From positions 1-27,426 of IMG/VR virus record IMGVR_UViG_3300016466_000153: 27,426 nt of DNA, one strand, 5' to 3'. The first letter of the stretch is position 1, and every line of letters starts with the position of its first letter. This DNA comes from a virus. Taxonomy: Duplodnaviria > Caudoviricetes. The notes beneath the pieces are model-generated. The model ran no database searches, had not been told where the DNA came from, and saw only the letters and a program-made list of their open reading frames with translations. Below, piece by piece: positions 749 through 14,693 of this stretch. Made by a program: the position numbers and the translations under genes.

Positions 749-1975
749 TTAAGATGAATAGACACCAGTCGTGTAATCGAACTCACAGTTTACTATCCTG
801 TGCATCCCGTTGATCTTGTTCTTTACAATGTTCAAGTACCGCATCCCATCATCACCGTCTGTCGAGTCTTGGAGTGGTGGGTTCCTAGAGATTAGTATCA
901 TAAGATCTGACTCACCTGCCAAGCCTGTCTTACTGCCTTCGATCATGGCCTGTGACAACACAATCTTACCCTCAGCCTCGGCACTTAGCTGTGTGCAGTA
1001 CACCACAAGACAGCCGTACATCTTGCCGATGTTACGGGCATAGATTGCATTTGCTTTGAGTGCCTCGTGGTTGTTAGTGGCAGCACCATCTTCTGCAAAC
1101 TTACTGCCAATGTCCATCACCACTACGTCAGGCTTGTGATTCTTTATCACTGACTCAGCCCAGTACATGTGCCTACCAGTTGCATCTACAAACTTTAAGT
1201 TGTCACGCAGTGGATCGTACAGCCTGTGTGCCTTAGACTTGTCAGCGACAATCTGTTGCATGGTCATGCCGGTGGCAGCAGTCATGTACCTACTAGCCAC
1301 ACGTTCAGGTTTCTCTTCGTTGCACAGCACCAGCACCTTTGCACCTTGGTGTGCCCAGCCATTAGGCCCAGCACACAACGTAGCATGGAAGCTGCTCTTA
1401 CCTACGTTTGACCTAGCACCAATGACAAACAGCATGCCACTGTCCAAGCCTTGGACTGCACTGTGCAAGCTGTGAATATTGAACTGCCACTTGGTGTTGT
1501 TAGCCGCACTGTCAATCAAGCTATCGATGCTAGTGTCTACATAGCTGATGCGGATACTAGGGGTGAAGTCATCTTGGTATGTCTCAAGGATCTTACGCAA
1601 TGGTTCCATTGTGTTCTGATCACCATTGACGTATTGAAATCCTAGGTTAGCAATCTCCTCACCGACAACCTGTCTGAACATGCTTGACAGTACGTCTTGT
1701 GCCACGTCAGCACCTATCTGCTCAGCCTTGTCTATCTTGTTGAACTGAAGTTCGTATGCCTGCTTCTGTGCAGTTGTTAATGTGGGATTGTGTGAAAAGA
1801 AAAGGGCTTGTACTTCATCAATCGACAAGTCCCTTTGGTAGTTGTCCATGGCTTGATCAATGACAACCTTGATCTTGCGTAGGTCTTTGGTAAACAGTTT
1901 GTCAGGGCACTTGTTGCCCCGGGTCTCATCGTAAAAGCTTTTGTTTAATAAACTCCTGAGTAACGCATGTTCCAA
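749..1975 (-). CDS. DnaB-like (SF4) replicative DNA helicase
   Basis: Walker A GARSNVGKSS, LCNEE motif, Walker B VVVMD, TQLS and IVKNK motifs; adjacent to primase. Confidence 0.92.
   Translation of the reverse strand: MEHALLRSLLNKSFYDETRGNKCPDKLFTKDLRKIKVVIDQAMDNYQRDLSIDEVQALFFSHNPTLTTAQKQAYELQFNKIDKAEQIGADVAQDVLSSMFRQVVGEEIANLGFQYVNGDQNTMEPLRKILETYQDDFTPSIRISYVDTSIDSLIDSAANNTKWQFNIHSLHSAVQGLDSGMLFVIGARSNVGKSSFHATLCAGPNGWAHQGAKVLVLCNEEKPERVASRYMTAATGMTMQQIVADKSKAHRLYDPLRDNLKFVDATGRHMYWAESVIKNHKPDVVVMDIGSKFAEDGAATNNHEALKANAIYARNIGKMYGCLVVYCTQLSAEAEGKIVLSQAMIEGSKTGLAGESDLMILISRNPPLQDSTDGDDGMRYLNIVKNKINGMHRIVNCEFDYTTGVYSS
1094..1110 (-). promoter_or_regulatory. Intragenic sigma54-like -24/-12 match
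   Basis: TTGGCAGTAAGTTTGCA (GG-N10-GC). It may be imposed by the DIGSKFA codons. Confidence 0.2.
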
Positions 1976-1976
1976 G

Positions 1977-2747
1977 TCATACTCCTATTAGCTGTTTAAG
2001 AATTCCGATGTCCTCATCGGTTCGGTACTTGAGGTCATCATACAGCTTAAGTGCGTACACGTCAATGCCTTCACTGCGTAACTCACGGGAGTAAGCAAGT
2101 GTCTTGTCTGCAGCATCAGGATCTAGTGCCACCACCACCTTGAAGTACTTCTTCAATGCAGTCTTGTATTCATCCAGCAACTGTGTGCCTAGCAAAGCAA
2201 ACCCTGTGCCACCCAATGACTCAACCACAGCAGCACTGATTGCATCCTCAACTACCACAGCCACGTTGCTCTCTGATCCTCTGACGTACGGGACACGGGC
2301 AGTACCATACCTTCTCCACTTGGGTACAACACCAGCCTTAGTTGCTCTACCAATTGCATCTACAATCTTGCCTTGCCATACAGTTGGGAAAACAATCCTG
2401 TCCTCCTTGACATCGTAGCGTAGGTCGAGTGCCTCAGGGTCAATGCCGTACTTATCTCGGTACTGATTTAAGTACTCAGGTCGGTATATCACCCACTCAG
2501 GAAACTTAAACTCAGGCAGTTCAACAAACTCCTCTTGCCTGTGCATGGCACGTTTGATGTCAGACACAGACATGCCTACATTCATAGCACCTGATACATC
2601 ACAGCTATTGGAATAGCAATTCCATAGCAGCTTGCCCATCTGATTGACAGCAGTAAAGGTGCTTGATCTTTTGCAGACAGGACACGGGCCACGCCACACT
2701 TCACCCATGCCTAAGTCTAGGTCAGTGACAAATTGTTTTGGATTCAT
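1977..2747 (-). CDS. DNA primase (zinc finger + TOPRIM)
   Basis: CPVC...CYSNSC zinc-binding domain; TOPRIM motifs VVEDAISA and ALDPDA. Confidence 0.9.
   Translation of the reverse strand: MNPKQFVTDLDLGMGEVWRGPCPVCKRSSTFTAVNQMGKLLWNCYSNSCDVSGAMNVGMSVSDIKRAMHRQEEFVELPEFKFPEWVIYRPEYLNQYRDKYGIDPEALDLRYDVKEDRIVFPTVWQGKIVDAIGRATKAGVVPKWRRYGTARVPYVRGSESNVAVVVEDAISAAVVESLGGTGFALLGTQLLDEYKTALKKYFKVVVALDPDAADKTLAYSRELRSEGIDVYALKLYDDLKYRTDEDIGILKQLIGV
2196..2212 (-). promoter_or_regulatory. Intragenic sigma54-like -24/-12 match upstream of helicase
   Basis: GTGGCACAGGGTTTGCT matches TGGCAC-N5-TTGCW exactly, about 220 bp upstream of the helicase start. Confidence 0.3.
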
Positions 2748-2890
2748 TTGGTAGCCATGAAGTAGAGACCTACGTTACTGAATGCGTACCCACTGTACAC
2801 AATCATCATGGAGATGTTGCCCTTGAGACCTTGCTCACCGGCAATGTATGCATAGATTAAACCGGTCACTATGATGAGCCATGCTGACAT
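2744..2890 (-). CDS. Small hydrophobic membrane protein (48 aa)
   Basis: Read manually: MSAWLIIVTGLIYAYIAGEQGLKGNISMMIVYSGYAFSNVGLYFMATK. AAGGA RBS; ATGA overlap with primase. Confidence 0.75.
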   Translation of the reverse strand: MSAWLIIVTGLIYAYIAGEQGLKGNISMMIVYSGYAFSNVGLYFMATK

Positions 2891-2916
2891 TTGGATTCCT
2901 TATATCACTTGTAATG

Positions 2917-3819
2917 TTACCCCTGCCGGTGTGCAAAGCGGAGCGTAGCAGCTTGTTGTGCACTTGTCAAGGTATTTTTTAAATAGGGTTTGACTGACTG
3001 AGGATTCGCATGGCCTGTGATCGACATGATCTGAGGCAGGGGGACACCGGCATCAACCATCTCCACTGTGCCAGTCCTACGCATGTCCATGATTTGCAGT
3101 TCCTCTGGCATACCTGCAGCCCTGAGCACCCTACGTGCAGCCATGGACAGTGCATGCTTTGAGTACGGCTCAGACAGTACCCGTTTGCCATGGCAGACAG
3201 GGGCTACGTACTGCTGAAACCCCATGTCATCCTGCTGTTGCACCAGCATCTCATGCAACTCGTCTGTGGTTGGCAGTTCTACCCTAGCCCTACGTTTAGA
3301 TTGCTCTAAATATAATACCCGTTTCTCAAAGTCGTACTTGTCCCATGTCAGGTTAGCCATGTCACCCAGCCTCTGACACCACTCGTATGCCATCTGTACA
3401 ATCAGGCCCACAGAACGCCATTTAAACTCGCTGTATGCCGTTGTGAGGAAGAGGTTGATATCCTCCCTTGTCCACACCACTTTGCGGGGTCTGTGTGGCC
3501 TTCTAGATACCTTGCTGAAGGGGTTTGTAGGTACATGTCCTAACTGGATTGCAAAGTTCCATAGCTTACTGCTCACAGCTAGGGTATGGTTGGCAAAAGA
3601 TACCCCCCTCTCTGCCCATATGTTGTAAGCAGCCTGTGCATTTGGGGGTGTGATGGTTGTGATGTTGGCTACTGCAAACTTAACACGTGGCAATTCGGTA
3701 GCCAGCATTGTGTCAATGCAGTACTTGTAATCTTTCTGTGTGACAGGGGCTAGGGATCTGTAGTCTAGGGACAGGTAATACTCAGCTACAACGTCTGTAA
3801 TCTTTGTACCCTTCGGCAT
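2917..3819 (-). CDS. int: Tyrosine recombinase / phage integrase
   Basis: SAM-like core-binding region; catalytic R (CQRLGD), K (QSKRR), MDMRRT (HxxR position), TGH and Y (KPY). Confidence 0.9.
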   Translation of the reverse strand: MPKGTKITDVVAEYYLSLDYRSLAPVTQKDYKYCIDTMLATELPRVKFAVANITTITPPNAQAAYNIWAERGVSFANHTLAVSSKLWNFAIQLGHVPTNPFSKVSRRPHRPRKVVWTREDINLFLTTAYSEFKWRSVGLIVQMAYEWCQRLGDMANLTWDKYDFEKRVLYLEQSKRRARVELPTTDELHEMLVQQQDDMGFQQYVAPVCHGKRVLSEPYSKHALSMAARRVLRAAGMPEELQIMDMRRTGTVEMVDAGVPLPQIMSITGHANPQSVKPYLKNTLTSAQQAATLRFAHRQG

Positions 3820-3831
3820 ACAGTACCCCTA

Positions 3832-4050
3832 TCAAAGTACATCTTTTAACTGCTTGTTTTCCAGTGCAGTGCTTAGGTCTGCAATCAAAGTCTCGTCTGT
3901 GCTCCCATACCTCAGGGCACGGAGTGAACGGGTGCAAAGATTGCGTAGCTTGTACACCTCTGTCTCAGTCCAGTCTGCATCACAGGCACACTCCATCCTA
4001 GCCCAAGCACTACAGGTGCAACCCATTCCCGGGTAGTAATCGATTGGCAT
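3832..4050 (-). CDS. Hypothetical protein with CTC..ECAC motif
   Basis: ORF in operon; GGAGG RBS. Confidence 0.65.
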   Translation of the reverse strand: MPIDYYPGMGCTCSAWARMECACDADWTETEVYKLRNLCTRSLRALRYGSTDETLIADLSTALENKQLKDVL

Positions 4051-4293
4051 CTATTTTCCCTCCGGCATCTCGCCTTGTTTAGTTGCCCACAAAGATACGC
4101 ATGCCATCTCCAAGTCCATCGATGGCCTGTGAGTACGCAGTGCATGCTTGTAACCTAGGTCATATGCTTCGACTAGGTTGGCTGCTGTCTCTCCACTACG
4201 CAGTACCCATATTATTTGTACAACACTGGCACCAATCAGGAATCCTGCGATGATGGTGTGGACTGCTTGGCTGTGTAGCCATTCTCTGCCCAT
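4051..4293 (-). CDS. Hypothetical membrane protein
   Basis: GGAGG RBS; N-terminal hydrophobic segment. Confidence 0.65.
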   Translation of the reverse strand: MGREWLHSQAVHTIIAGFLIGASVVQIIWVLRSGETAANLVEAYDLGYKHALRTHRPSMDLEMACVSLWATKQGEMPEGK

Positions 4294-4499
4294 GCTACCT
4301 CCTGTTCAAGTAATTTGATTCGCCTCTCCATGCTATCGACATTTAGATTATCGTAGATAGTATTGGCAAAGTTAAGTAGGAACTCACCTAGGTCTAGCCT
4401 AGCACCACCATCCTCCTCCTCATGTATGTGCATCTTCTTGTCTGACTCAGGCATTGAGTCCATGATCAAGTTGATGTCATCCAAAGTAAACTTAGCCAC
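4236..4499 (-). CDS. Hypothetical protein
   Basis: GTG start with GGAG RBS. Confidence 0.6.
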   Translation of the reverse strand: MAKFTLDDINLIMDSMPESDKKMHIHEEEDGGARLDLGEFLLNFANTIYDNLNVDSMERRIKLLEQEVAWAENGYTAKQSTPSSQDS

Positions 4500-4501
4500 A
4501 A

Positions 4502-4609
4502 TTAATCTCCCAGTCTAGATATCCAAAGGGCAATGCCTGCCACAATCAGTAAGCCAATAGTATCCCTGACGATTACGTATGCAACGTAATTGATTTCCAT
4601 AAAAGACAT
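4502..4609 (-). CDS. Small hydrophobic peptide (35 aa)
   Basis: Read manually: MSFMEINYVAYVIVRDTIGLLIVAGIALWISRLGD; GGGGAG RBS. Confidence 0.5.
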   Translation of the reverse strand: MSFMEINYVAYVIVRDTIGLLIVAGIALWISRLGD

Positions 4610-4697
4610 AACCACTCCCCTGTTGGATTGCACAAAAACTATATACGTTGTAAAAAAATTCACAGAAAACGTGAAGAGTGCACAACTTTATATAGTG

Positions 4698-4789
4698 GAT
4701 GCTGGTTACGATAATCCAGCGTTGGTGCCCCCCGTTTTACACGGAGCTTAGTGGGTGCCTTGCACCACACTTCCAACCGATCAAGCATC
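4698..4789 (-). ncRNA. Candidate multi-branch structured RNA
   Basis: Five complementary segment pairs in 92 nt, immediately after the DUF932 stop codon. Confidence 0.4.
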
Positions 4790-4798
4790 TTATGTTAC

Positions 4799-5680
4799 CT
4801 AAGCAGCCAGTGCAAACTCAGGCATGAACAACTGCTGGTAGGCATCAGACTGCATGACAGCATGGATGTCAGTCTCCATACGGATACGCTTACGCTCAAG
4901 GTCAGTGCCTGCACGGCCTTCGATGTGAGTACTGAGGTGAGTCAGCGTATTGTAAACACGATAAGCATTGTCACCGATGCTGTTGTAGTTATCGTAGATA
5001 CCAACAATCTGATCAAGCCACTTCTTGTTGACCTTCATGCCGGTACGGGTTGGGTACGTAGCCACGTGGCTCTCAAAGAACTTGACCACAGTCTCACGAT
5101 TGACACGGACGTTACGCATCTGTGCCATCATCTCAGCCTGTTGCTCAAGTTGGATGGGGAAGTTAGCGGCCACTTTGCCAACAGTCTCAGGGTCTGAGTA
5201 CGTCGTGTGCTTCTGACTGATACCGACACGCTCACGGGGTGCAATCATTCCGTTCAAGCAGGCAAGGCGGTAGATCATGGCCTCGACTTGACGCTTGACA
5301 GACTGGTCGTGTGAGTCACGTACATTCATCTGCATCTTAGCAGCCTCACCAAGCTTCTTCTCAAAGTCGTACTTGTTGAGGATGATCTTGGCTGAGAATG
5401 CTGCACCATCTGCAATGCTGGAGAACGATACCTCGGCATGGCTGGTGTCAATGTCGGCAAGTGCCAAGCCCTCACGCAGGTTGTCCCACATGGTACGGAA
5501 GTTGGCAGTGCGGTGCACAGAACGTGAGTCACCAATGACTACGTCAGTGACAGGGTTGACCACCCAGAAGCGGTCAGCCAGTGCAATACCATTGCGGATC
5601 TGTGGCTCACGTGCTGGTTCGAAGTCGAGGTCAGCAGGCAGGGCAGGCAGGATGTCGTTGAGTTGTGCTTCGGTCATCAT
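4799..5680 (-). CDS. DUF932-family protein
   Basis: VRDSHDQS and YRLACLNGM motifs, NAYRVYNTLTH C-terminal motif; AAGGAG RBS. Confidence 0.75.
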   Translation of the reverse strand: MMTEAQLNDILPALPADLDFEPAREPQIRNGIALADRFWVVNPVTDVVIGDSRSVHRTANFRTMWDNLREGLALADIDTSHAEVSFSSIADGAAFSAKIILNKYDFEKKLGEAAKMQMNVRDSHDQSVKRQVEAMIYRLACLNGMIAPRERVGISQKHTTYSDPETVGKVAANFPIQLEQQAEMMAQMRNVRVNRETVVKFFESHVATYPTRTGMKVNKKWLDQIVGIYDNYNSIGDNAYRVYNTLTHLSTHIEGRAGTDLERKRIRMETDIHAVMQSDAYQQLFMPEFALAA

Positions 5681-5685
5681 GGGTA

Positions 5686-6105
5686 TTACTCCTTAAAGGA
5701 AAGTTTGTTTGGAATAGAACTGCTGTGTGGAGCAAACGACTCTACCTCTACGGGTAGTTTGTAGGTACGGCTTAGGTACTGAAAGAAACTTACAGGTGAT
5801 TGCTTGTGTGTCTCAAATGAAATCATCAGTGCATCAGATACAGGGCAGTCGGCATAGTGCCACCGGCTGACAGTCTTTGTGGGACAGTTAGGTGCAGTCC
5901 AGCCCAGTGCTTCAAAGGGCATGGGTTTGTAGGTACTAAATGCCTGCTTGACCGGGGCATACTGTGCCTCATTGCCGATGAGTCTAATGTTGTGGTGAAT
6001 CCATTCATGGTTAGCGATATCCTCCAGCCCTCCCAACCAGTTACGAGGTCGGGCATGGGGGTGATCAGGTACGATGACCTTGGTTTGAACGAAGGGTTTG
6101 AACAT
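5686..6105 (-). CDS. Hypothetical protein, weakly DUF1281/YubB-like
   Basis: NHEWIHHNIRLIG and ISFET..SP..FFQYL resemble the family motifs as recalled. Confidence 0.45.
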   Translation of the reverse strand: MFKPFVQTKVIVPDHPHARPRNWLGGLEDIANHEWIHHNIRLIGNEAQYAPVKQAFSTYKPMPFEALGWTAPNCPTKTVSRWHYADCPVSDALMISFETHKQSPVSFFQYLSRTYKLPVEVESFAPHSSSIPNKLSFKE

Positions 6106-6298
6106 TCCATCCTTTCCCTATGTGCCTTGCTGGTGTAGACCTAGCCCAGTACAAACTGTACCTGCCTAGGTGCAAGGCGTTGAACACTGTGCCCGGTATT
6201 GCAGACTCCAAGCACACCCCTCGGTCTTTACGTACCCGTCTACGGAATATGACAGGCAGCAGACCGAACAACTTAAAACGTTTTTCGTAGTACCTCAT
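6065..6298 (-). CDS. Hypothetical basic protein
   Basis: ATG at 6298 with GGAG RBS (MRYYEKRFKL...). Confidence 0.55.
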   Translation of the reverse strand: MRYYEKRFKLFGLLPVIFRRRVRKDRGVCLESAIPGTVFNALHLGRYSLYWARSTPARHIGKGWNVQTLRSNQGHRT

Positions 6299-6423
6299 GG
6301 CGATTCTCCCATTATCATCACAAGTACCAGCAGTGCATACAACGGCACTAGCAGGGCACAAGACAGTAAGATCATAGCAATTGTGTCCACAAAAGGCAAG
6401 TACTTCGGATTGATTTTAAACAT
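6295..6423 (-). CDS. Small membrane peptide (42 aa)
   Basis: Read manually: MFKINPKYLPFVDTIAMILLSCALLVPLYALLVLVMIMGESP. GAGG RBS; ATGA overlap with the next gene. Confidence 0.6.
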   Translation of the reverse strand: MFKINPKYLPFVDTIAMILLSCALLVPLYALLVLVMIMGESP

Positions 6424-6781: not shown

Positions 6782-6792
6782 GGCGTGTCTCC

Positions 6793-7263: not shown

Positions 7264-7265
7264 GA

Positions 7266-7508
7266 TCACTTCTCCTGTGTAGTTGCGTTGCCAATGATTG
7301 TGTGCATATCCCGTTCAAGGCGGGTGAGGAATTCTTTGTAGAGCATCAGCAGTCTACTGCTGTCTGCGTCATTCAGAGTCTCGTCTATCACCCACATATT
7401 CTGTACGTCTAGTAAAACTTTCTTGGCTAAGTTCTCGCAGTAAGCCACGTCCTCTTGGGCTGTCTTGAGTTTAGCCATAAGTTCATCATGCTGGGCTGGG
7501 AGTTGCAT
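7266..7508 (-). CDS. Hypothetical protein
   Basis: AAGGAG RBS; operon packing. Confidence 0.6.
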   Translation of the reverse strand: MQLPAQHDELMAKLKTAQEDVAYCENLAKKVLLDVQNMWVIDETLNDADSSRLLMLYKEFLTRLERDMHTIIGNATTQEK

Positions 7509-7913: not shown

Positions 7914-7915
7914 AA

Positions 7916-8260
7916 TTAACTCCCAAGTACTAGGTGTAAAGTGGTCACGCCATCGGGGCTGGTCTCCCCTTTGTAGACACCCTCAAAGAATGCATGGTGG
8001 GCATCCTTTGTGCATTTCATAGACCGCTTGGCACAGTTGTACAGCCTACCCCATGTGGGGTTTGTCAGTACGTCTGAGACATAGGCGTGGCTGTCTTCAC
8101 CTCCGAAGTACTCAGCAGCAGGTACATATGCTCTGTACTTGCCTTCGAATGCAACCACGTTACGCTTCATCACGTATCCGTAATCGTCCCGTCGAACCTT
8201 CGACACTAGACTTGGGTCTCTGTCGAGGGTGGATTCACTCACATGTACACTGTAGATCAT
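7916..8260 (-). CDS. Hypothetical protein
   Basis: ATG at 8260 with GGAGG RBS; DAHHAFFEG motif. Confidence 0.65.
   Translation of the reverse strand: MIYSVHVSESTLDRDPSLVSKVRRDDYGYVMKRNVVAFEGKYRAYVPAAEYFGGEDSHAYVSDVLTNPTWGRLYNCAKRSMKCTKDAHHAFFEGVYKGETSPDGVTTLHLVLGS
8190..8205. promoter_or_regulatory. Palindromic operator-like site, copy 1 (intragenic)
   Basis: CGTCGAACCTTCGACA followed by CTAG; one mismatch to consensus. Confidence 0.6.
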
Positions 8261-9043: not shown

Positions 9044-9174
9044 TTTACGGCCTCACTTTCTTCGTTAAGTTCAGTAACTACAACACGTAAGTACCTTACA
9101 CCTTCGAATATTTCAGTCACTTCAAAGTCAACCCCTGCATTGTCCAGCAGTTCGTAGAGTTCTTGTGGTGTCAT
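9040..9174 (-). CDS. Small acidic protein (44 aa)
   Basis: Read manually: MTPQELYELLDNAGVDFEVTEIFEGVRYLRV...; GGAGG RBS. Confidence 0.65.
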   Translation of the reverse strand: MTPQELYELLDNAGVDFEVTEIFEGVRYLRVVVTELNEESEAVK

Positions 9175-9186
9175 GCCTGTGCCTCC

Positions 9187-9357
9187 CTAAGTATATGAGG
9201 CAGCGTCACTGCCATGTGCATTGTCAACCCAGCACCCACTGGCATCGAACCCAATCTGCATGGTCTCGCAAGACTCAGTGATCTCACGCACAATTTCATC
9301 AGCACGTTTACTGTTAGGCTCAACCTCTTCAAACTCAAACGCTACGTATACAATCAT
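9187..9357 (-). CDS. Small hypothetical protein (56 aa)
   Basis: Read manually: MIVYVAFEFEEVEPNSKRADEIV...; GGGAG RBS; ATGA overlap. Confidence 0.6.
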   Translation of the reverse strand: MIVYVAFEFEEVEPNSKRADEIVREITESCETMQIGFDASGCWVDNAHGSDAASYT

Positions 9358-9683
9358 GCTCGTACTCCCTTCAGTAGTTGCCGTAAAGTCATGTCTGCTT
9401 CAATGCTTGCATCCCAAATCAAGTCTTCGTAAATACCACCAGTTATGAAGTCTTGCACAGATGGATAGCAACACCCTCCTATGTACTGTGTGCTTAAGGT
9501 GATGCCTAGTTTCTTGGCTTCAATCTTAGCCATAAACCACCGCAACCAGCCCTTGTCGATTTGGTCTAAGATCTGTGCCTTTTCTTCTGCTGACATCTCC
9601 CAGTCAGGCTCGGATTCTTCAGGGCGTATTGAAAGTACGTATTCAAAGTCACCCCTTGTCTCTGTTTGTATGTACTCCCACAT
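9354..9683 (-). CDS. Hypothetical phage protein (YIGGCCY motif)
   Basis: GGAGG RBS; TAATG overlap. Confidence 0.7.
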   Translation of the reverse strand: MWEYIQTETRGDFEYVLSIRPEESEPDWEMSAEEKAQILDQIDKGWLRWFMAKIEAKKLGITLSTQYIGGCCYPSVQDFITGGIYEDLIWDASIEADMTLRQLLKGVRA

Positions 9684-9862
9684 TATTCCCTCCCTTGCAC
9701 TGTGTATTCATAGGTGTAATACAAAGACTCGCCCTTGTCATGTACAGCACGAGGGTTCATGTATATCTCATTGGCTATGTTCCGCATTGCATCAGCCGCT
9801 ACAAAGTTCCACTTGTACGGGTGCTCAGGAAACTCCACCACAACAGTCACTTCTACCTTCAT
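9683..9862 (-). CDS. Small hypothetical protein (59 aa)
   Basis: Read manually: MKVEVTVVVEFPEHPYKW...; GGAGG RBS. Confidence 0.6.
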   Translation of the reverse strand: MKVEVTVVVEFPEHPYKWNFVAADAMRNIANEIYMNPRAVHDKGESLYYTYEYTVQGRE

Positions 9863-10038
9863 GCCTGTGCCTCCAATGTTATTGCATCAATGACTACAAA
9901 GTCACCAAAAGTGTTGTACGGATAGTCCTTGACTTTTTCCAGAGCCTCTGTCAACGTGCAAGCCAAGACAGGCACTTGATGTACAACACCATTGACCACA
10001 TGCTGCAGTTGTACAAAGAATATTTTTTTCCTGCTCAT
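9859..10038 (-). CDS. Small hypothetical protein (59 aa)
   Basis: Read manually: MSRKKIFFVQLQHVVNGVVHQ...; AAGGAGG RBS. Confidence 0.6.
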   Translation of the reverse strand: MSRKKIFFVQLQHVVNGVVHQVPVLACTLTEALEKVKDYPYNTFGDFVVIDAITLEAQA

Positions 10039-10058
10039 CTTATGCCTCCTTAATTTAC

Positions 10059-10074
10059 TGTCGAATGTTCGACA
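10059..10074. promoter_or_regulatory. Palindromic operator-like site, copy 2
   Basis: TGTCGAATGTTCGACA, just upstream of an RBS. Confidence 0.75.
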
Positions 10075-10078
10075 CTAA

Positions 10079-10109
10079 AAGTTCATCGGGTACTTCTACT
10101 TCATCGCCC
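10079..10109. repeat. 31-bp direct repeat, copy A
   Basis: AAGTTCATCGGGTACTTCTACTTCATCGCCC; 30/31 identical to 10723-10753. Confidence 0.85.
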
Positions 10110-10117
10110 TTTCTAAA

Positions 10118-10705
10118 CTAAATGATACTGCCAGCCCCACCACAATCAGGGCAGTCTTTCCACACAGGGGTTATGCCATCATTGCCTTCAAAACGGCCAT
10201 AACTATGAGACAAAACACCTTGGTCATGCCAATGCTTAGCACAAGTCTCGCACCCATGCGTGTCGTTCCAAATAAAATTTGCCTCTGCATTCACTTCTTC
10301 CACCACTTTGTAAAACCGCTCGGCAAATTGCTCCGGTTCCTCATCCAACTGCTTCACCTCAACTTCATACTCGCCCGTTCCATAATCAACACCCTCGACA
10401 ATCGAGCCAACTATCAGGGCAGTCACCAACACCCCTTGGGAATCCATGTCAGACCATGAGCCCAAGCGATACAAGTCATCAGAATGTACCCATTCTGTCA
10501 CCTCCTGCTCATGCGGGTATTCGTCAAACCCATCAGGCTCAAGCACTTTGATGTATTGAATTCTTGCGCTTAACCAAGGGCCACAAGTGGTGTACTTGTA
10601 AGTCTGGCGATATAAATCACCCAACCCCTTGGCATCGGGGAAAGCCTCGGCAAAGTACTGATTGTCCAAACGCTCCTCGTCATACTCTGGTGGGTAATCG
10701 TTCAT
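10118..10705 (-). CDS. Acidic hypothetical protein with CxxC...CxxCxGxG zinc motif
   Basis: CETC and CPDCGGAG motifs; AAGGAG RBS. Confidence 0.7.
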   Translation of the reverse strand: MNDYPPEYDEERLDNQYFAEAFPDAKGLGDLYRQTYKYTTCGPWLSARIQYIKVLEPDGFDEYPHEQEVTEWVHSDDLYRLGSWSDMDSQGVLVTALIVGSIVEGVDYGTGEYEVEVKQLDEEPEQFAERFYKVVEEVNAEANFIWNDTHGCETCAKHWHDQGVLSHSYGRFEGNDGITPVWKDCPDCGGAGSII

Positions 10706-11055
10706 TTCACTTCTCCTTCCATAAGTTCATCGGGCACTTCTACTTCATCGCCCAGTTTGCTTGCCACATAACAACGCATGGCTGCAACGAGTACGGTTGG
10801 GCCATCCATACAGAAGGTGCGGTTCAGCCCACCAAGGCTAGGTTTACGAGCACCGTACTGATGCGCTTTATCAGGCGCAGGTATCCATTGCCATTCGATC
10901 TTCTCCCGCTCAATGATCGGCCCGCCTTGTGCCCATTGTTTTGAGTAGTCTGGGCAGTCGTAGTCCAACCCCCCGTCAACAACCTCATAGTTGATCCCCT
11001 CGCATTTCGCCACCGCCCAGTCCAATGCGGCCCCTTCCAGTTCAGATACTTTCAT
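10702..11055 (-). CDS. DUF2591 / NinX-like protein
   Basis: LEGAALDWAVAKCEG, YS..WAQGGPIIERE and GPT.LVAAMRCYVASKLG motifs. Confidence 0.8.
   Translation of the reverse strand: MKVSELEGAALDWAVAKCEGINYEVVDGGLDYDCPDYSKQWAQGGPIIEREKIEWQWIPAPDKAHQYGARKPSLGGLNRTFCMDGPTVLVAAMRCYVASKLGDEVEVPDELMEGEVK
10723..10753. repeat. 31-bp direct repeat, copy B
   Basis: 3' end of the DUF2591 gene (GDEVEVPDEL). Confidence 0.85.
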
Positions 11056-11067
11056 ACGCCCTCCCAA

Positions 11068-11784
11068 TTAGACTGCCACTGCAAAGCCACTGGTATCACC
11101 CACACAGGTACCCTTGGCACGTAGACCTACAATCACGTTGGCGGGATCGTCATAACGTGCATCATGTTCGTCACCATCGATCACCACTTTGCCAGCCCAC
11201 CGCTTGGGCAATGGCTGACCCTTCTTGACCAAGAAAACCACAGCCATGTTAGCCTGTGCGTCAATCGCATGTGACACCTGACGTTGGTACGTAGGCACAC
11301 CTGAGTATGAGAATGTCAGGTGATAATTGAACGGGGTCTTGCCTAATCGGCTAGCCCGTTTGGTGTAGTCATAAAACTCAACCTCAGGGAATGCCTGTGG
11401 GATGCCACTAAAAGCCTTGCCATGCCGATTGCAGGTAACAGACTCCCATGTTACGTCAGACAGCACGTTAAGCCTGACACGTGCCCTCTTGCCATGCTTA
11501 CTAGCCCGTTTGACCAGTGCCTCTAGGTCTTTGACCAACTGATCGACAAACTCCGTTTGATTGGCATGAAACCAGTCAGTCTTACGCTGACGTGCCAGTG
11601 CCACATTTGAGAATCTGCCACGGCCTGCAGACTTCAGGCATTTGTCCATGCACCCTGCTGCCTTAGAGCCGGGGCATAGCACGTTGTCAGGCATCATGGA
11701 CAGGCCAGCATACAGGTGACCAGCACCGACTTTGGCATTGGTCTTGGCGAGTTTAGAGTTAGAGTCTACGGATAGCAGTTTCAT
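11068..11784 (-). CDS. Gp88-like protein (Cys cluster, radical-SAM-like)
   Basis: CPGSKAAGCMDKCL, RLNVLSD, FYDYTK, NYHLTFS and DGDEHD motifs. Confidence 0.75.
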   Translation of the reverse strand: MKLLSVDSNSKLAKTNAKVGAGHLYAGLSMMPDNVLCPGSKAAGCMDKCLKSAGRGRFSNVALARQRKTDWFHANQTEFVDQLVKDLEALVKRASKHGKRARVRLNVLSDVTWESVTCNRHGKAFSGIPQAFPEVEFYDYTKRASRLGKTPFNYHLTFSYSGVPTYQRQVSHAIDAQANMAVVFLVKKGQPLPKRWAGKVVIDGDEHDARYDDPANVIVGLRAKGTCVGDTSGFAVAV

Positions 11785-11796
11785 ACGTCCTCCGAG

Positions 11797-11976
11797 TCAA
11801 TACACTTGGTTGATCACACACTGATAGACGAAGTCTTTGTCCTCATTCAGTGCCTCTAATTCCTTGTCAGTCAGTGGCGTACCATCCTTGTGCTCTGCAT
11901 AGGTTATGTATGCATCACAAAAGTCAGGGTAGTCACGGGTGTCTATGCCATCCACAGTCACGTTAAATGCGCTCAT
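11797..11976 (-). CDS. Small conserved phage protein (DGIDTRDYPDFCDAYI)
   Basis: Read manually, 59 aa; GAGGA RBS. Confidence 0.7.
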   Translation of the reverse strand: MSAFNVTVDGIDTRDYPDFCDAYITYAEHKDGTPLTDKELEALNEDKDFVYQCVINQVY

Positions 11977-12244
11977 CTGAATCCTCAGTTTCTACTGTCG
12001 AATGTTCGACACAACAATCGTTGATATCGCCATAGTCTTTTCTGTCCGTAGTGCCATTGTACCCACGAGCATACTGCTCAATCTCACCTGCAGACATCTC
12101 AGCCATGGGCACTCTACGGGATTTGTAGGTAGCCCCTTCGTAATAGTGAGGGTCAAACTCCCTGCCATAGTAGGCATCAGCACCGCCTCTATCGAAAGGG
12201 CCACCATGCCGGTGGGTCTCAACTGCAAACGCTACGTATGTCAT
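11963..12244 (-). CDS. Conserved phage protein (HGGPFDRGxADxYYGR)
   Basis: Motif plus GGAGG RBS. Confidence 0.75.
   Translation of the reverse strand: MTYVAFAVETHRHGGPFDRGGADAYYGREFDPHYYEGATYKSRRVPMAEMSAGEIEQYARGYNGTTDRKDYGDINDCCVEHSTVETEDSDERI
11996..12011. promoter_or_regulatory. Palindromic operator-like site, copy 3 (intragenic)
   Basis: TGTCGAATGTTCGACA. Confidence 0.72.
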
Positions 12245-12256
12245 ATGTCCTCCGGG

Positions 12257-12679
12257 TTAGTCCAAACGGGAATCAGCATATGCCTCAATGCCAGCATCAC
12301 ACAGCACCTTGGCATAAGCACTTGCATAGGCAAACTTGCGGTCAACACTCTGGTTGAACTCGCCCACCCAGACCTGCAACCCTTTAGGGTAGGCAGGGCT
12401 TGCAATGCCTTGGGCTTTGGCCCATTTGCCCCATGCAGTATTGCCCTTGAATCGTACCCAAGCAAACCCACATGCCCCTTCAGGTACAAACCATGACCTG
12501 CCGATGGGGTTGCCTATCAAGTCGGCTTCATACACTGTCATTGGAGTGGGGTTGGATTCTGTGCCAGCCTTCATGCCTGCATCATGTGCCCTTTCATGCA
12601 GGGCTTGGAATGTGTCTGCCTTGGCCTTGGTTTCAGGGATGGGGAATGCTTGGGTGAACCTTGTGAGTGTGATTTTCAT
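12257..12679 (-). CDS. Conserved phage protein (EGxCGFAWV family)
   Basis: ATG at 12679 with AAAGGA RBS; GACGFAWV and QSVDRK.AYA motifs. Confidence 0.78.
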   Translation of the reverse strand: MKITLTRFTQAFPIPETKAKADTFQALHERAHDAGMKAGTESNPTPMTVYEADLIGNPIGRSWFVPEGACGFAWVRFKGNTAWGKWAKAQGIASPAYPKGLQVWVGEFNQSVDRKFAYASAYAKVLCDAGIEAYADSRLD

Positions 12680-12702
12680 CTGCAAGTTTCCTTTCAGGTT
12701 AC

Positions 12703-12718
12703 TGTCGAACATTCGACA
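12703..12718. promoter_or_regulatory. Palindromic operator-like site, copy 4
   Basis: TGTCGAACATTCGACA, between the leader hairpin and the RBS. Confidence 0.75.
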
Positions 12719-12731
12719 CTAGACTTCACAT

Positions 12732-12794
12732 ATACAGGGTTATTATTTTTATCCCCTTCACCTTCGGTTCAGGGGTAAAAATATATAACCTATA
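12732..12794 (-). other. Long leader hairpin 1
   Basis: GGTTAT..TATTTTTA-CCCCT-GAACC-GAA-GGTGA-AGGGG-A-TAAAAATA-ATAACC. Confidence 0.7.
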
Positions 12795-12819
12795 CACACG
12801 GGTGATGCGTTGTCTTTAA

Positions 12820-12836
12820 GGCAATTAAAATGCCAA
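12820..12836 (-). promoter_or_regulatory. Putative sigma54 promoter P3
   Basis: TTGGCATTTTAATTGCC with GG-N10-GC spacing; precedes a non-coding leader. Confidence 0.55.
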
Positions 12837-13043
12837 TTCTATTGGCATATAATTGCTACTTGATCCTGCAGGCACGAGGTCAAACCTGCCTTTGATCTCA
12901 AAGCCCATACCCTGTGCCAGTTTCAAGACACGTGGAGTTAGGGTCTTAGTGCCTGCAATTTCAGCCAATGCCTTAGCCTGTGCATTGTCAGGGTGATACG
13001 CTACGCACCCATACTGGGGCTTGATTACGACGAGGATTTCCAT
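12825..13043 (-). CDS. Conserved phage protein (YG...YHP....A..LA.IAGTKTLT)
   Basis: Motif; GAAAGG RBS. Confidence 0.75.
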   Translation of the reverse strand: MEILVVIKPQYGCVAYHPDNAQAKALAEIAGTKTLTPRVLKLAQGMGFEIKGRFDLVPAGSSSNYMPIELAF

Positions 13044-13047
13044 AGGG

Positions 13048-13134
13048 CTACCCTTTCATTAGTGCATAAAAACCGGCAAACCATGGCGCACCTACAATCC
13101 CGCACCACACGAGGATTTCAAACCATTTAAGCAT
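13048..13134 (-). CDS. Small hydrophobic peptide (28 aa)
   Basis: Read manually: MLKWFEILVWCGIVGAPWFAGFYALMKG. Its RBS block is nearly identical to that of the next gene. Confidence 0.5.
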   Translation of the reverse strand: MLKWFEILVWCGIVGAPWFAGFYALMKG

Positions 13135-13228
13135 AGGACTACCCTTTCACTCTGTGCCACTTTTTATATACGTACGTGTATGTACATGGGTGTATGCACA
13201 TACAGGTAGGTACATGTGTGATGCATCA

Positions 13229-13259
13229 CGGGGCAGGTAGCATGACGCTACCCACCCCG
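13229..13259 (-). other. GC-rich hairpin after early gene (processing or stabilising; no U-tract)
   Basis: CGGGGTGGGTAGC-GTCAT-GCTACCTGCCCCG. Confidence 0.5.
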
Positions 13260-13269
13260 CAATCAAGCA

Positions 13270-13971
13270 TCAGGCTAAAGCCTGCAGAGCCGCAATCACT
13301 TTGGCAAGGTCTAAGCCTTCGGCTTTAGCGATTTGAGCCATGCTACTAGCGAATTCAGACTCACTGGCAGTAGATACCTCTACTGCACCATCATCAGATT
13401 CGCTATCAGCCTTCGGCTGTTTTACTGTCGAATGTTCGACACTACCCTTGTTACCTTCGGTAACAGTGTCATCCTCATCAGCCTCAGCCTTCGGCTTAGA
13501 GGCTTTCCGCAACTGCTGACGAAGGTAGGCCGCTGAAGCGGAAGACATTGACATGTCTTTCATAAATTTTTGAACATTTTGCCACTCTGTGGCAAGCCAC
13601 ATGGCATCGGATCGATCTTGACGTGACATTATTCCAAGTGGTGTCTTCGACACCAGTTTGCCATAATCCTTGTCTGAAGCACCGGACACCGAACGTAGTT
13701 CGAGAAGGACTTCACCGATACCTTTCAACTTTTCAAGTTGACCCTTACGTTGTTTTACAAGGGACTTGTAAACAGCGGCTTGATGCTCAATTGCTTCGCC
13801 AAGAGTGTGGCCTTCAGTACCGAAGGTACGGCTGAAGATTGGGTTGCTCTCTTTCAGAGAGGGGATTTGTACTCCCTTGGCTACAGTAGAAACCTTCGGT
13901 TTCGATTGTTCTGCTTTAGCAGAGGGAGCGACAATGGCTTTATCTTCGATAATGGCGAGGTTCGATTTCAT
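13270..13971 (-). CDS. Early protein of unknown function
   Basis: ATG at 13971 with GAAAGGA RBS; helical core and acidic linker. Confidence 0.7.
   Translation of the reverse strand: MKSNLAIIEDKAIVAPSAKAEQSKPKVSTVAKGVQIPSLKESNPIFSRTFGTEGHTLGEAIEHQAAVYKSLVKQRKGQLEKLKGIGEVLLELRSVSGASDKDYGKLVSKTPLGIMSRQDRSDAMWLATEWQNVQKFMKDMSMSSASAAYLRQQLRKASKPKAEADEDDTVTEGNKGSVEHSTVKQPKADSESDDGAVEVSTASESEFASSMAQIAKAEGLDLAKVIAALQALA
13426..13441. promoter_or_regulatory. Palindromic operator-like site, copy 5 (intragenic)
   Basis: TGTCGAATGTTCGACA. Confidence 0.72.
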
Positions 13972-14002
13972 GGTGTGAATCCTTTCAGGATGGTGGGATG
14001 AA

Positions 14003-14182
14003 TTAACGTGAAGCAAGGGAAGCAGAAACAGCAAGGAAAACATTGCCTACGGCAAGGCAAAGCATCAACAGTGATTCGGTACTACCGAATGGGAAAGCCA
14101 AGGCTGCAAATGCAAAGCATGGCAAGGCAATCAGCATGAAAGCAAGGCTGACAAAAGCGGCAATCGATCGGTCTTCATTCAT
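14003..14182 (-). CDS. Two-TM small membrane protein; first gene of the early arm
   Basis: AAGGAA RBS; two hydrophobic segments. Confidence 0.6.
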   Translation of the reverse strand: MNEDRSIAAFVSLAFMLIALPCFAFAALAFPFGSTESLLMLCLAVGNVFLAVSASLASR

Positions 14183-14190
14183 TTTCAATT

Positions 14191-14286
14191 TCCTTCTGTT
14201 GGTTTATAATCAGGGTACTGTAAATTATTCCCCCTTCACTGAAGTTCAGGGGGTAATTTACTAGTACCCTATAAACCTACAGAAGG
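14191..14286 (-). other. Long leader hairpin 2 (occludes the RBS)
   Basis: CCTTCTGT/ACAGAAGG, GGTTTATA/TATAAACC, GGGTACT/AGTACCC, GTAAATTA/TAATTTAC and CCCCCT/AGGGGG. Confidence 0.8.
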
Positions 14287-14309
14287 GTTGTCCCGGCAAC
14301 TTTCGACCC

Positions 14310-14326
14310 AGCAAAAGCCATGCCAA
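14310..14326 (-). promoter_or_regulatory. Putative sigma54 promoter P1
   Basis: TTGGCATGGCTTTTGCT; intergenic, upstream of the first early gene. Confidence 0.65.
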
Positions 14327-14404
14327 ACTTCCACGTAGGAAGCCAAAGGCTGACACAAAGTTTCGCATGTGATGACATGAGACTGATTCGGCAAATCGAC
14401 CCAA

Positions 14405-14421
14405 AGCACAGACCATGCCAA
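14405..14421 (-). promoter_or_regulatory. Putative sigma54 promoter P2
   Basis: TTGGCATGGTCTGTGCT; GG-N10-GC; imperfect duplicate of P1. Confidence 0.5.
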
Positions 14422-14440
14422 TTACATTGGCAAAGGGTAC

Positions 14441-14456
14441 TGTCGAAGGTTCGACA
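14441..14456. promoter_or_regulatory. Palindromic operator-like site, copy 6
   Basis: TGTCGAAGGTTCGACA. Confidence 0.75.
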
Positions 14457-14470
14457 CTAGAAACTGTTGG

Positions 14471-14595
14471 ACACCGAAGGTGAAGGGAGTCGATCTGCCT
14501 AGTGGATAGTTAGGTGATAAACACCGAAGGTGAATGGGGTTAAAGTGATGGACACCGAAGGTGGGGTTGACAAATAGGATTGTACACCGACGGGG
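14471..14595 (+). repeat. ACACCGAAGGTG x3 plus one variant
   Basis: Copies at 14471, 14521 and 14552; variant ACACCGACGGGG at 14584. Confidence 0.85.
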
Positions 14596-14647
14596 TATCC
14601 TTTGGATAAGCCCTCAAAACTGCCATGCCGCTACCCTTTTTTTCAAG

Positions 14648-14670
14648 TTAACTGATTCTATATCAGTTAA
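14648..14670. promoter_or_regulatory. Inverted repeat TTAACTGAT-N5-ATCAGTTAA
   Basis: Perfect 9-bp arms. Confidence 0.55.
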
Positions 14671-14680
14671 AGGCATTGGC

Positions 14681-14693
14681 TAAGTCATTGATA
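14681..14693 (-). promoter_or_regulatory. IHF consensus site
   Basis: TATCAATGACTTA matches WATCAANNNNTTR. Confidence 0.5.

Follow-up and report, generated by a model that had tools for sequence, protein, structure and literature searches.

The window, the whole 27,426-nucleotide stretch of DNA analysed here, represents about half the genome of an uncultured HMO-2011-like phage. Its genes form two opposed arms, with the integrase–primase–helicase order also seen in HMO-2011-type phages (Puniceispirillum phage HMO-2011 and Roseobacter phages CRP-1/2/3; PMC9038755), whose portal is 72–73% identical to that of the window. Between the arms lies a conserved motif—probably a physical genome end or a terminal repeat—that anchors 78 non-redundant junctions; two relatives are classed with direct terminal repeats, and two carry a DNA polymerase with a partial DnaJ domain. 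The features discussed below are collected in Table 1.

Table 1. Coordinates of genes, promoter-like sites and repeats in the window
Feature	Position	Strand	Remarks
Helicase-gene sigma54-like match	1094..1109 (box 1109-1095)	-	invariant I-G-S-K-F-A; 9.6 bits
Primase-gene sigma54-like match	2196..2211 (box 2211-2197)	-	codons G-G-T-G-F-A; 18.5 bits
Tyrosine integrase gene	2917..3819	-	PF00589, E 1.2e-16; phrog_1
Sigma70-type site, TTGACA-17-TACGCT	2942..2970	-	3' end of integrase gene, upstream of primase-helicase
Palindrome copy 6	8190..8205	.	one mismatch; inside an ORF; 11.8 bits
Palindrome copy 5	10059..10074	.	intergenic, just before ribosome-binding site
Palindrome copy 4	11996..12011	.	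just before ribosome-binding site; no sigma54 box nearby
Palindrome copy 3	12703..12718	.	102 nt downstream of P3, just before ribosome-binding site; 18.7 bits
Leader hairpin 2	12723..12808	-	after P3; core same as hairpin 1 (alignment); z -5.56
P3, sigma54-type box	12820..12836 (box 12835-12821)	-	predicted start 12809; 10.9 bits
gp1, first large early protein	13270..13971	-	233 aa, helical, conserved; 410 homologues
Palindrome copy 2	13426..13441	.	inside low-confidence linker of gp1
First small early ORF	14003..14182	-	59 aa, hydrophobic, no family match
Leader hairpin 1, long	14192..14286	-	begins 13 nt past predicted P2 start, ends in ribosome-binding site
P2, sigma54-type -24/-12 box	14310..14326 (box 14325-14311)	-	predicted start 14299; window's top score, 21.2 bits
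P1, sigma54-type -24/-12 box	14405..14421 (box 14420-14406)	-	predicted start 14394; 16.7 bits
Palindrome copy 1	14441..14456	.	20 nt before P1, 115 nt before P2; 13.8 bits, host-derived matrix
IHF consensus site	14681..14693	-	225 nt upstream of palindrome copy 1
Genome-end motif	14785..14849	-	GATCTGTGT...ATACA...CGC, then GC-rich stretch; conserved
Sigma70-type late promoter, TTGACA-17-TATAAC	15086..15114	+	similar site in relatives
Sigma70-type site, TTGACA-16-TATAAC	26723..26750	+	before major capsid gene

A first, sequence-only reading had listed five minus-strand GG-N10-GC boxes of sigma54 type in the early arm. All five are present, the quoted positions marking the base just after each box, and four carry TTGC as described, the exception being P1 with GTGC. 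As a complete list it falls short, since the early sense strand also has matches at 11407, 9214 and 5180, all in ORFs. That strand holds eight TGGCA-N8-GC matches against 1.77 expected, and the antisense strand of the same arm five against 1.69. The fuller TGGCA-N6-TTGC pattern stood up to shuffling (four found, 0.15 expected, 0/200 shuffles), and the late sense strand has no match to it. P1 and P2 are indeed duplicates, 95 nt apart and both followed by TGGGTCGA..TTGCCG; the -24 half of P1 is also one arm of a short palindrome, TGCCAAT-N3-ATTGGCA. On a sigma54 matrix built from 58 pilin promoters of Betaproteobacteria, the putative host group, P2, the primase-gene site and P1 score well, with P3 and the helicase-gene site weaker. 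The host pilin promoters themselves have a minimum of 11.7 bits and a 10th percentile of 15.1, and the scores of P1 and P2 fall inside the range of host sigma54 promoters. In the 668-nt non-coding head, two sites reach at least 15 bits against 0.00 expected.

Predicted sigma54 starts sit just before hairpin stems. Leader hairpin 1 folds at -54.5 kcal/mol (z -7.79, 0/200 shuffles), has a conserved core and no Rfam match, and by its shape could be an RNase III-like substrate. Across 16 loci that span three deep gp1 lineages, the hairpin core follows a P2-type box at 82–87 nt; the TGGCA and TGC of the box are the same in all of them, while its spacer differs. The proposal that sigma54-type promoters head the early arm is supported by a conserved position, fixed -24/-12 bases and a variable spacer. 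A forward box is present in 15 of the 24 junctions where gp1 has a strong homologue and a reverse one in none; the nine without a canonical box comprise one clade with TT for GC at -12 and others with GG-N11-GC or nothing. A second, upstream box occurs in six relatives including the window, at a spacing of 93–96 or 105–107 nt. P3 is weaker than P1 and P2 yet conserved, and its box–hairpin–palindrome order recurs in six loci at 113–138 nt.

Further into the early arm, the boxes in the primase and helicase genes are probably coding by-products, retained in only 3 of 26 primase and 4 of 22 helicase rows. Their loss in most relatives, together with a sigma70-type site before the primase, argues against the claim that the entire early arm is sigma54-driven. 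That site (at 2970) has a -35 region like that of the late promoter at 15086, and 12 of 17 non-redundant primase loci, that of Roseobacter phage CRP-1 among them, have one of its type upstream of the gene. The late arm appears to be of sigma70 type, as had been proposed, with both TTGACA/TATAAC sites (15086 and 26723) present.

The TGT-N10-ACA palindrome reported upstream of P1 exists, but not as a single site: it is one of six co-oriented TGTCGAA-NN-TTCGACA copies, and most relatives have a copy at the same place in gp1 as copy 2. Copy 1 is predicted to be the enhancer for a host sigma54 activator. Counting against this, palindrome-to-box gaps in the phage show no helical phase (R 0.04–0.28, 18 gaps); the host gaps of at most 85 nt do (R 0.64 at 10.5), though all host gaps together do not (R 0.20), and the 20-nt gap before P1 is shorter than the commonest host ones. 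An IHF consensus had also been noted and is present at 14693–14681, but a role in a sigma54 loop does not fit a site outside the enhancer–promoter interval. In 40 of 40 junctions, sigma70-type ones included, it lies 130–180 nt from the end motif with at most one mismatch (32 exact); its likely role is at the genome end, in packaging, circularisation or replication, and not in the loop.

The same palindrome emerges from bacterial promoters. A Gibbs search of 58 betaproteobacterial MSHA-type pilin promoters, unseeded by the phage, returned TGTCGAaATtTCGACA, and the six best sites of the resulting matrix in the window are the six phage copies. When pilin genes were located solely by their protein, 32 of 104 upstream regions contained the palindrome within three mismatches (0/104 in-gene regions; 0.55 in shuffles). 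All 16 of the bacterial loci retrieved, which come from four genomes, have it 31–103 nt ahead of a sigma54 box; four of these loci had been picked up with the joint pattern, two represent one and the same place, and two of the genomes are closely related. These palindrome–box pairs and the pilin promoter motif support the earlier suggestion that the palindrome is an activator site. On the other side, the palindrome taken alone shows no enrichment in the betaproteobacterial order (34 of 401 genomes versus 38 for the control), and such sites there have a sigma54 box within 200 nt in only 5 of 29 cases.

Four of the five genomes read encode a REC-AAA+-HTH activator within the same cluster as the pilin promoter, at a distance of 16–18 kb; this cluster is MSHA-type (MshL over its cut-off). 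Of the 129 among 301 genomes that have this activator, 124 also have the pilin. The protein reaches the cut-off of no named NCBIfam family, and its recognition helix presumably differs from that of PilR. In two non-betaproteobacterial MAGs the same palindrome serves other genes, so its reader could be another activator. No prophage with gp1 turned up in GTDB. Because the window is only about half a genome, the claim that no activator is encoded here had to be checked in relatives, and it held: PF00158 is absent from five of five near-complete relatives, and no activator or sigma factor was found among the 95 ORFs of two of them.

On balance, we consider it probable that the first early genes are transcribed from host sigma54 promoters (P2, P1 and probably P3) under a host NtrC-family activator bound to the 16-bp palindrome; the betaproteobacterial MSHA-type pilus cluster is its most likely source, although, given the rest, that identity has about an even chance of being right. 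This reading builds on comparison of sequences: the boxes, their place before leader hairpins, the agreement of the palindrome with the pilin motif, and the absence of an activator gene from near-complete relatives. Once the left genome end is inside the cell, a closed complex of sigma54-RNA polymerase would form at P1/P2, to be opened by phosphorylated host activator at copy 1, concentrated by the other copies. The hairpin-headed transcript would then yield gp1 and other small early proteins, sigma70-type promoters would run replication and late genes, and the extra palindrome copies would serve as remote enhancers and, at a later stage, titrate the activator away.

A candidate second reader of the palindrome is gp1, and the palindromes could instead be operators through which gp1, as a possible ParB/KorB-like binder, represses or organises the early region, the sigma54 boxes being fired by another host activator, perhaps from solution. 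The palindrome tracks gp1 better than it tracks the sigma54 box: every one of the 24 junctions where gp1 has a strong homologue carries it at the genome end, against 0 of 3 with a weak homologue and 1 of 13 lacking gp1 (the sequence of that one stops before gp1 would be reached), and 5 of these 13 have boxes but no palindrome. As a single clade is involved, this co-occurrence is not independent evidence. One copy lies inside gp1, and most stand before ribosome-binding sites without a box; across 68 internal copies in 25 loci, a box lies downstream in only 3 (background 47/960 windows) and upstream in 7. A weak lead connects gp1 to DUF3102/ParB-type DNA-binding domains (Atlas 0.92, 149/256 features, family on 29% of members), and comparison of its structure model (pLDDT 65.6) gave only SopB/KorB rows at Z 3.6–3.8 over residues 77–164. 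No fold match of weight and no PDB sequence match was obtained for gp1, and 74 family members gave no hit to Pfam DUF3102. Such operators would leave unexplained both the identity of the site with the de novo consensus for host pilin enhancers and its location 70–170 nt ahead of sigma54 boxes. We regard this explanation as unlikely, and it is compatible with a host activator if gp1 competes with it.

More doubtful is a decoy role, in which early RNA begins elsewhere and the boxes and palindromes are unproductive docking sites for sigma54 holoenzyme and the pilus activator, titrating both, which would shut down host pilin synthesis (receptor exclusion) or anchor the entering DNA. The first 6.7 kb hold six strong palindrome sites, four scoring above 82% of host sites, most of them with no adjacent box; in one clade TGGCAYG and the palindrome persist although the -12 GC is gone and the spacing is sigma70-like, and 4 of the 13 junctions lacking gp1 have leftward boxes that face the genome end. 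Against such a decoy, the boxes still have their two halves, all point the same way and stand at a set distance from the leader hairpin, and no sigma70-type site turned up ahead of the first genes in the window's group.

We give little credence to a role in RNA, with the palindromes as stem-loops before ribosome-binding sites (message stabilisers or cassette recombination points) and P3 as a terminator arm. The 22-mer does fold as a hairpin (z -3.29), the flanks of the six copies share one orientation, and a ribosome-binding site directly follows 39 of 68 internal copies (background 208/960). P3 overlaps the final codons of ORF 12825–13043, at whose end it forms the 3' arm of a 16-bp imperfect inverted repeat and is flagged terminator-like; a comparable repeat, with 9- and 11-base spacing, occurs in three relatives. 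Yet it is the palindrome sequence itself that is conserved, not pairing alone, and it equals a DNA motif found in host promoters; the predicted transcript begins downstream of copy 1, and no inverted partner accompanies P2 (fold z -1.11).

Least probable of all is the full model of the sequence-only reading, in which all five boxes are promoters, IHF bends the loop and the activator's state selects lysis versus lysogeny or dormancy: the score of the primase site, helicase codons identical in three relatives (background codon identity 0.52–0.79), functional intragenic sigma54 sites in E. coli (PMC4591121) and the reported integration of the CRP-3 relative (PMC9038755) speak for it, but the intragenic boxes are rarely retained, the primase has its sigma70-type site, IHF lies outside the interval, unlike the cases in PMC2709558, and recurs at sigma70-type junctions, no repressor gene was recognised in the family annotation of the window or the ORFs of two relatives, and nothing beyond an integrase gene favours the switch.

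Host-driven sigma54 transcription of the first genes, the reading we prefer, resembles known systems in part. NifA sites have the form TGT-N10-ACA. Among classical enhancer-dependent sigma54 promoters, nifH is served by NifA together with IHF, and glnAp2 by NtrC independently of IHF (PMC2709558). The phage shares with these classical promoters the -24/-12 box and a palindrome of TGT-N10-ACA shape about 100–150 nt upstream, but differs in that IHF is not between enhancer and promoter, one upstream site is common to tandem boxes, and more sites are scattered in transcribed genes. Pseudomonas phage YuA, which has no RNA polymerase of its own, is described as relying on both sigma70 and sigma54 promoters, with one sigma54-like start, P015, mapped (PMC10914365); the available text of that account names no enhancer or host activator, the word 'enhancer' occurring 0 times. 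YuA is unrelated to this phage, in which tandem boxes head the early arm alongside a six-copy enhancer-type palindrome. Closer relatives differ as well: CRP-1 gp01 is a distant gp1 homologue, and the stretches of HMO-2011 and CRP-1 read have a similar leader hairpin with no sigma54 box before it and no palindrome copy, in records that may stop short of the true genome end. The word 'promoter' does not occur in the available main text of PMC9038755. In the PilS–PilR system, a membrane kinase and an NtrC-family activator drive pilA from a GG-N10-GC promoter with an upstream TGT-type site (PMC6058289, PMC7170775). PilR sites bear the hallmark TGT-N11-AGA/GTCT quoted there, whereas the MSHA-type host motif identified here is a 16-bp TGTCG-N6-CGACA palindrome, and in this phage the element sits on viral DNA. 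With sigma54-type boxes beside a palindrome that matches the pilin-promoter motif, the phage likely lets the host's pilus regulator start its early genes.

The window, an entire contig of about half a phage genome, contains two arms that diverge from a non-coding junction near 14.2–15.3 kb, which probably represents the joined genome ends; two relatives were assigned to the direct terminal repeat class. On the minus arm, small early genes are followed by integrase, primase and helicase; terminase, portal and capsid genes lie on the plus arm. The portal shares 72–73% identity with its counterparts in Roseobacter phage CRP-1 and Puniceispirillum phage HMO-2011, and homologous portal, terminase, capsid, primase and helicase genes in conserved order place the phage with the HMO-2011 type. 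The type is recognised by a family A DNA polymerase whose central domain is a partial DnaJ (PMC9038755) and which has two CXXCXGXG motifs. The window's polymerase gene lies off the contig; in two relatives a DnaJ match falls inside the family A polymerase, at E-values (1.7e-4 and 3.3e-5) short of the Pfam cut-off. No tRNA was found in the window or three relatives. In the late arm, an ORF with an ART-PolyVal ADP-ribosyltransferase domain (E 8.9e-17) may encode an ejected internal virion protein.

Positions of promoter-like and associated elements in the window
Feature	Position (nt)	Remark
P1, sigma54-type box	14420	minus strand
P2, sigma54-type box	14325	minus strand
P3, sigma54-type box	12835	minus strand
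Primase site	2211	intragenic sigma54-type box
Helicase site	1109	intragenic sigma54-type box
Palindrome, first copy	14441–14456	before P1
Palindrome, all six copies	14456 to 8190	co-oriented
CACCTTCGGTG element (three copies) and CCGAAGG words	14461–14563 and 12750–13900	minus strand
TTAACTGAT-N5-ATCAGTTAA inverted repeat	14648–14670	about 10 nt past the IHF site
First leader hairpin	14192–14286	after P2
Second leader hairpin	12723–12808	after P3
gp1 ORF	13270–13971	first large early protein
31-nt direct repeats	10079–10109 and 10723–10753	97% identical
ORF flanked by the 31-nt repeats	10118–10705	beside palindrome copy 5
TTGACA-17-TACGCT	2970	end of integrase gene
ART-PolyVal ORF	22832–24511	late arm

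A sequence-only reading had listed five sigma54-type boxes with exact spacing in the early arm. All five are present, and three more TGGCA-N8-GC matches, each within an ORF, were missing from that list. TGGCA-N6-TTGC occurs four times on the early sense strand (0.15 expected; 0/200 shuffles) and is absent from the late sense strand. P1, P2 and P3 each combine a –24 TGGCA with a –12 TGC at exact GG-N10-GC spacing, which is invariant in 16 related loci. Scored with a matrix derived from host pilin promoters (described below), P2, the primase site and P1 fall within the host range, and P3 and the helicase site under the host minimum; the non-coding head holds two sites of at least 15 bits versus 0.00 expected. 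P1/P2 and P3 (the latter in six loci) occupy conserved, gene-directed, non-coding positions, which the primase and helicase sites do not. A generic sigma70 scan was uninformative (23 sites versus 21.4), and a suspected promoter near the 3′ end of gp1 (13317) scored 0.5 bits and was dropped.

The intragenic boxes overlap the peptides GGTGFA (primase) and IGSKFA (helicase). Once unrelated peptides had been removed (3 of 29 primase rows, 1 of 23 helicase rows), the box was kept in 3/26 and 4/22 rows, respectively, and was lost throughout one lineage with a canonical terminal box. Codons of the helicase site are identical in three relatives (background 0.52–0.79), and intragenic sigma54 sites can be functional, as an excerpt of PMC4591121 describes, so the two boxes may still be active. 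The TTGACA-17-TACGCT motif is found in 12 of 17 primase loci, CRP-1 among them, arguing that the replication genes are likely driven by a sigma70-type promoter. With the intragenic boxes mostly lost in relatives and a sigma70-type site before the primase gene, the proposal that the whole early arm is sigma54-driven is not supported.

A genome-end motif search returned 64 viral and 108 metagenomic loci (flanks fetched for 80 of the 108), yielding 78 non-redundant junctions. Forty passed a second end-motif filter; the 38 excluded include one (L235) that carries palindrome and box. The 24 junctions with a strong gp1 homologue share one order—end motif, IHF site, palindrome (24/24), then sigma54 box, found forward in 15/24 and reverse in 0/24. 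The last box stands 82–87 nt ahead of the long-hairpin core in 16 loci, where TGGCA and TGC are invariant and the spacer varies, and six loci have tandem boxes spaced 93–96 or 105–107 nt apart. In the gp1 tree, canonical boxes fall in three deep lineages. One clade of seven rows (L179, L191, L200, L203, L226, L253 and L304; support 100/100) keeps TGGCAYG and has TT at –12 with sigma70-like spacing; three further rows have GG-N11-GC within an inverted repeat, or no box. Members of the TT clade keep the upstream palindrome, read TTTTACT at –12 and have an upstream tract rich in A/T as well as a TTAC-N4-GTAA palindrome; here a sigma54 promoter may have become a sigma70 one. Among 13 junctions without gp1, five carry forward boxes and no palindrome, four of these five also a leftward box, and several carry plain TTGACA promoters. 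A sister group (L201, L204, L243 and L309; 370–630 nt from the end motif) lacks gp1 and palindrome and has canonical forward and leftward sigma54 boxes; the different conserved block between these opposed boxes suggests another host activator. In MW202701 the sole box is leftward, near 43948.

The leader hairpin starts just past the predicted transcription start and ends in the ribosome-binding site (fold z –7.79); that after P3 reached z –5.56. Both have an AGTGAA-containing apex that recurs in marine relatives (HMO-2011 1–60 and 1200–1250; CRP-1 near 1000), and window positions 1–16000, hairpins included, gave no Rfam match. Presumably these are akin to T7-type RNase III sites. The search for expression data listed no RNA holder, and the one run with a 0.05 share yielded only short contigs of mixed relatives, uninformative on starts.

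IHF had been proposed to act in a sigma54 promoter loop. At the promoters treated in the consulted part of PMC2709558, IHF binds between enhancer and promoter. Here, 225 nt separate the IHF site from the palindrome downstream of it, which puts the site outside that interval, and it stands 130–180 nt from the end motif in 40/40 junctions (32 exact), sigma70-type junctions included. Because of this upstream position and constant distance, a genome-end role is more likely, and the loop proposal is not supported. The inverted repeat next to the IHF site is conserved in many relatives and is possibly a terminase or integrase arm site.

The TGT-N10-ACA palindrome noted before P1 is real, yet not single: it is the first of six co-oriented TGTCGAA-NN-TTCGACA copies. 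Upstream of it, the CACCTTCGGTG copies are spaced 50 and 31 nt apart and are multiplied in several relatives, and CCGAAGG words are numerous in the early leader; either could be weak half-sites or UUCG/GAA mini-hairpins. Half-sites are likewise repeated at host MAG sites. The 31-nt repeats beside copy 5 look like the trace of a gene insertion.

We then looked for the palindrome in bacteria. Two GTDB searches for the joint pattern of palindrome, gap and sigma54 box gave 35 and 30 loci; a large part of the first set resembles chance matches in ORFs, and 11 of 13 inspected closely precede a plausible gene start. Two related MAGs hold 9 and 11 palindrome copies (controls 1 and 2), and a near-consensus box follows by 31–103 nt in 16/16 loci fetched from these and two other genomes, four loci having been preselected by the joint pattern and two coinciding in place. 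The same prepilin gene lies downstream of the palindrome in seven genomes, most of them labelled Betaproteobacteria; it belongs to an MSHA-type cluster (MshL 253.4 bits; cut-off 250.2). The cluster also encodes a membrane kinase and an activator of REC-AAA+-HTH architecture, which scores below the cut-off of every named family and lies 16–18 kb from the pilin promoter in four of five genomes examined.

For an unbiased set, the pilin was collected by protein alone, giving 104 upstream regions, one of them a seed, after 6 of 110 loci were dropped (upstream sequence shorter than 330 nt, or nothing matching the motif). A strict sigma54 box is present in 59 regions and a loose one in 83 (in-gene control 24), and the palindrome occurs within three mismatches in 32/104, versus 0 in-gene and 0.55 in shuffles. 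A symmetric Gibbs search of 58 pilin regions, phage sequence excluded, recovered TGTCGAaATtTCGACA; the top six sites of its matrix in the window are the six phage copies (0.76 expected). By sequence, phage and pilin promoter share an enhancer motif that would belong to an MSHA-activator regulon. Order-wide, the activator occurs in 129 of 301 genomes and the pilin in 124 of those 129, kinship uncorrected; among 30 pilin loci with known genomes, motif and box coincide in 14/26 with the activator and 1/4 without. The palindrome alone is no marker (34/401 genomes versus 38 control; both genome tallies count the unpublished G037, G216 and G305), and a box stands beside 5/29 sites found by the palindrome alone. 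The motif also occurs in unrelated MAGs, and 37 GTDB matches of the flanked palindrome are taxonomically scattered. It differs from the hallmark TGT-N11-AGA site and GTCT elements of the PilR regulon, as excerpted from PMC6058289, and the family comparison of the pilin cluster brought up no PilR model.

Several further loci deserve mention. Two 7-Mb MAGs labelled proteobacterium/Alphaproteobacteria (G009 and G010; L425–L440) have a sigma54 regulon of at least 8–9 genes, each behind an exact palindrome, encoding predicted lipoproteins and secreted proteins, with 21–22 candidate activators per MAG. Palindrome variants precede sigma54 boxes at L408, L450 and L462, ahead of a flagellar hook-type gene (Hyphomicrobiales MAG) and two secreted-looking proteins (betaproteobacterial sample). 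Small-genome Methylophilaceae (L571, L606) keep the pilin, with neither box nor palindrome upstream.

Sigma54 requires an enhancer-binding ATPase (PMC2709558, in part). The window had been said to encode none, and this extends to its relatives: PF00158 was found in 0/5 near-complete relatives, and neither activator nor sigma factor among 95 ORFs of two. Activation would therefore have to be host-derived. On balance, we think it probable that host sigma54 holoenzyme docks at P1/P2 and that a palindrome-bound host activator of the NtrC family opens the complex. Sequence comparison shows the motifs, their positions and conservation, the host-motif match, activator–pilin synteny and the missing phage activator; binding, firing and host are inferred. 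Given this mechanism, chances are roughly even that the MSHA-cluster activator, the leading candidate by synteny and co-occurrence, is the one involved. The remaining palindrome copies would concentrate the activator locally or, at a later stage, serve as a sink for it, and middle and late genes would use sigma70.

Against this reading, the palindrome tracks gp1 better than it tracks the box. Among 68 internal copies in 25 loci, a box lies downstream of three (background 47/960) and upstream of seven, six of these being the conserved P3–hairpin–palindrome module at 113–138 nt; 39/68 sit just before a ribosome-binding site by manual count (background 208/960). Phage palindrome–box gaps show no helical phase, which short host gaps do show. 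The palindromes could be operators for gp1, the reading we first favoured and, because of the host-promoter evidence, now place second and consider unlikely. A weak Atlas lead points from gp1 to DUF3102/ParB-type domains, and structural rows to SopB/KorB reach Z 3.6–3.8 (rmsd 3.0–4.1, 70–76 aligned residues). Pfam gave no DUF3102/ParB-type confirmation, Foldseek nothing at E<=0.001, the best VIA hit (Z 4.7) is an unrelated helical protein, and no match appeared in PDB sequences, in GenBank phages by tblastn or in GTDB. That the copies are pure decoys would suit the internal ones with no box downstream, and sits poorly with boxes that keep both halves, one orientation and a fixed distance to the leader hairpin; we give it little credence. 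Placement before ribosome-binding sites would suit RNA stem-loops, which the motif match to host promoters makes very improbable. Least credible is the full lysis/lysogeny switch of the sequence-only reading, on which only the integrase bears.

A bolder extension of the host-activator reading, which we hold doubtful, is that the phage ties its start-up to the regulator of its own receptor: it would adsorb to MSHA-type pili and copy the pilin enhancer in ideal form, restricting the firing of its first promoters, and perhaps transcription-driven DNA entry, to cells with the pilus activator on; the multiplying copies, possibly with gp1, would then pull the activator off the pilin promoter and exclude later phages. 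Receptor and sink would both be inferred here.

Phage YuA is described, in an excerpt, as using a sigma54-like promoter (PMC10914365), and phage sigma54 use is therefore already known as a kind. In the literature searched, YuA was the only phage case, and no paper dealt with host-enhancer copying by a phage, with the palindrome motif or with HMO-2011-type promoters. The sigma54, altered and sigma70 versions of one leader among related ends form a natural series for phage sigma-factor switching.

The general view of lytic podovirus-type phages is that they begin with strong sigma70 promoters or a polymerase of their own. If our reading is true, infection would hinge on a single host pathway, since its start would need a signal-controlled host activator driven by ATP; for that pathway sequence names a candidate, a pilus cluster that has its own kinase and activator. 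This would offer a predicted binding motif for a widespread betaproteobacterial activator, of which we found no description in the literature searched, a sequence marker from which to predict hosts for an abundant uncultured group of phages, and a link, open to testing, from the expression of the receptor to that of phage genes.
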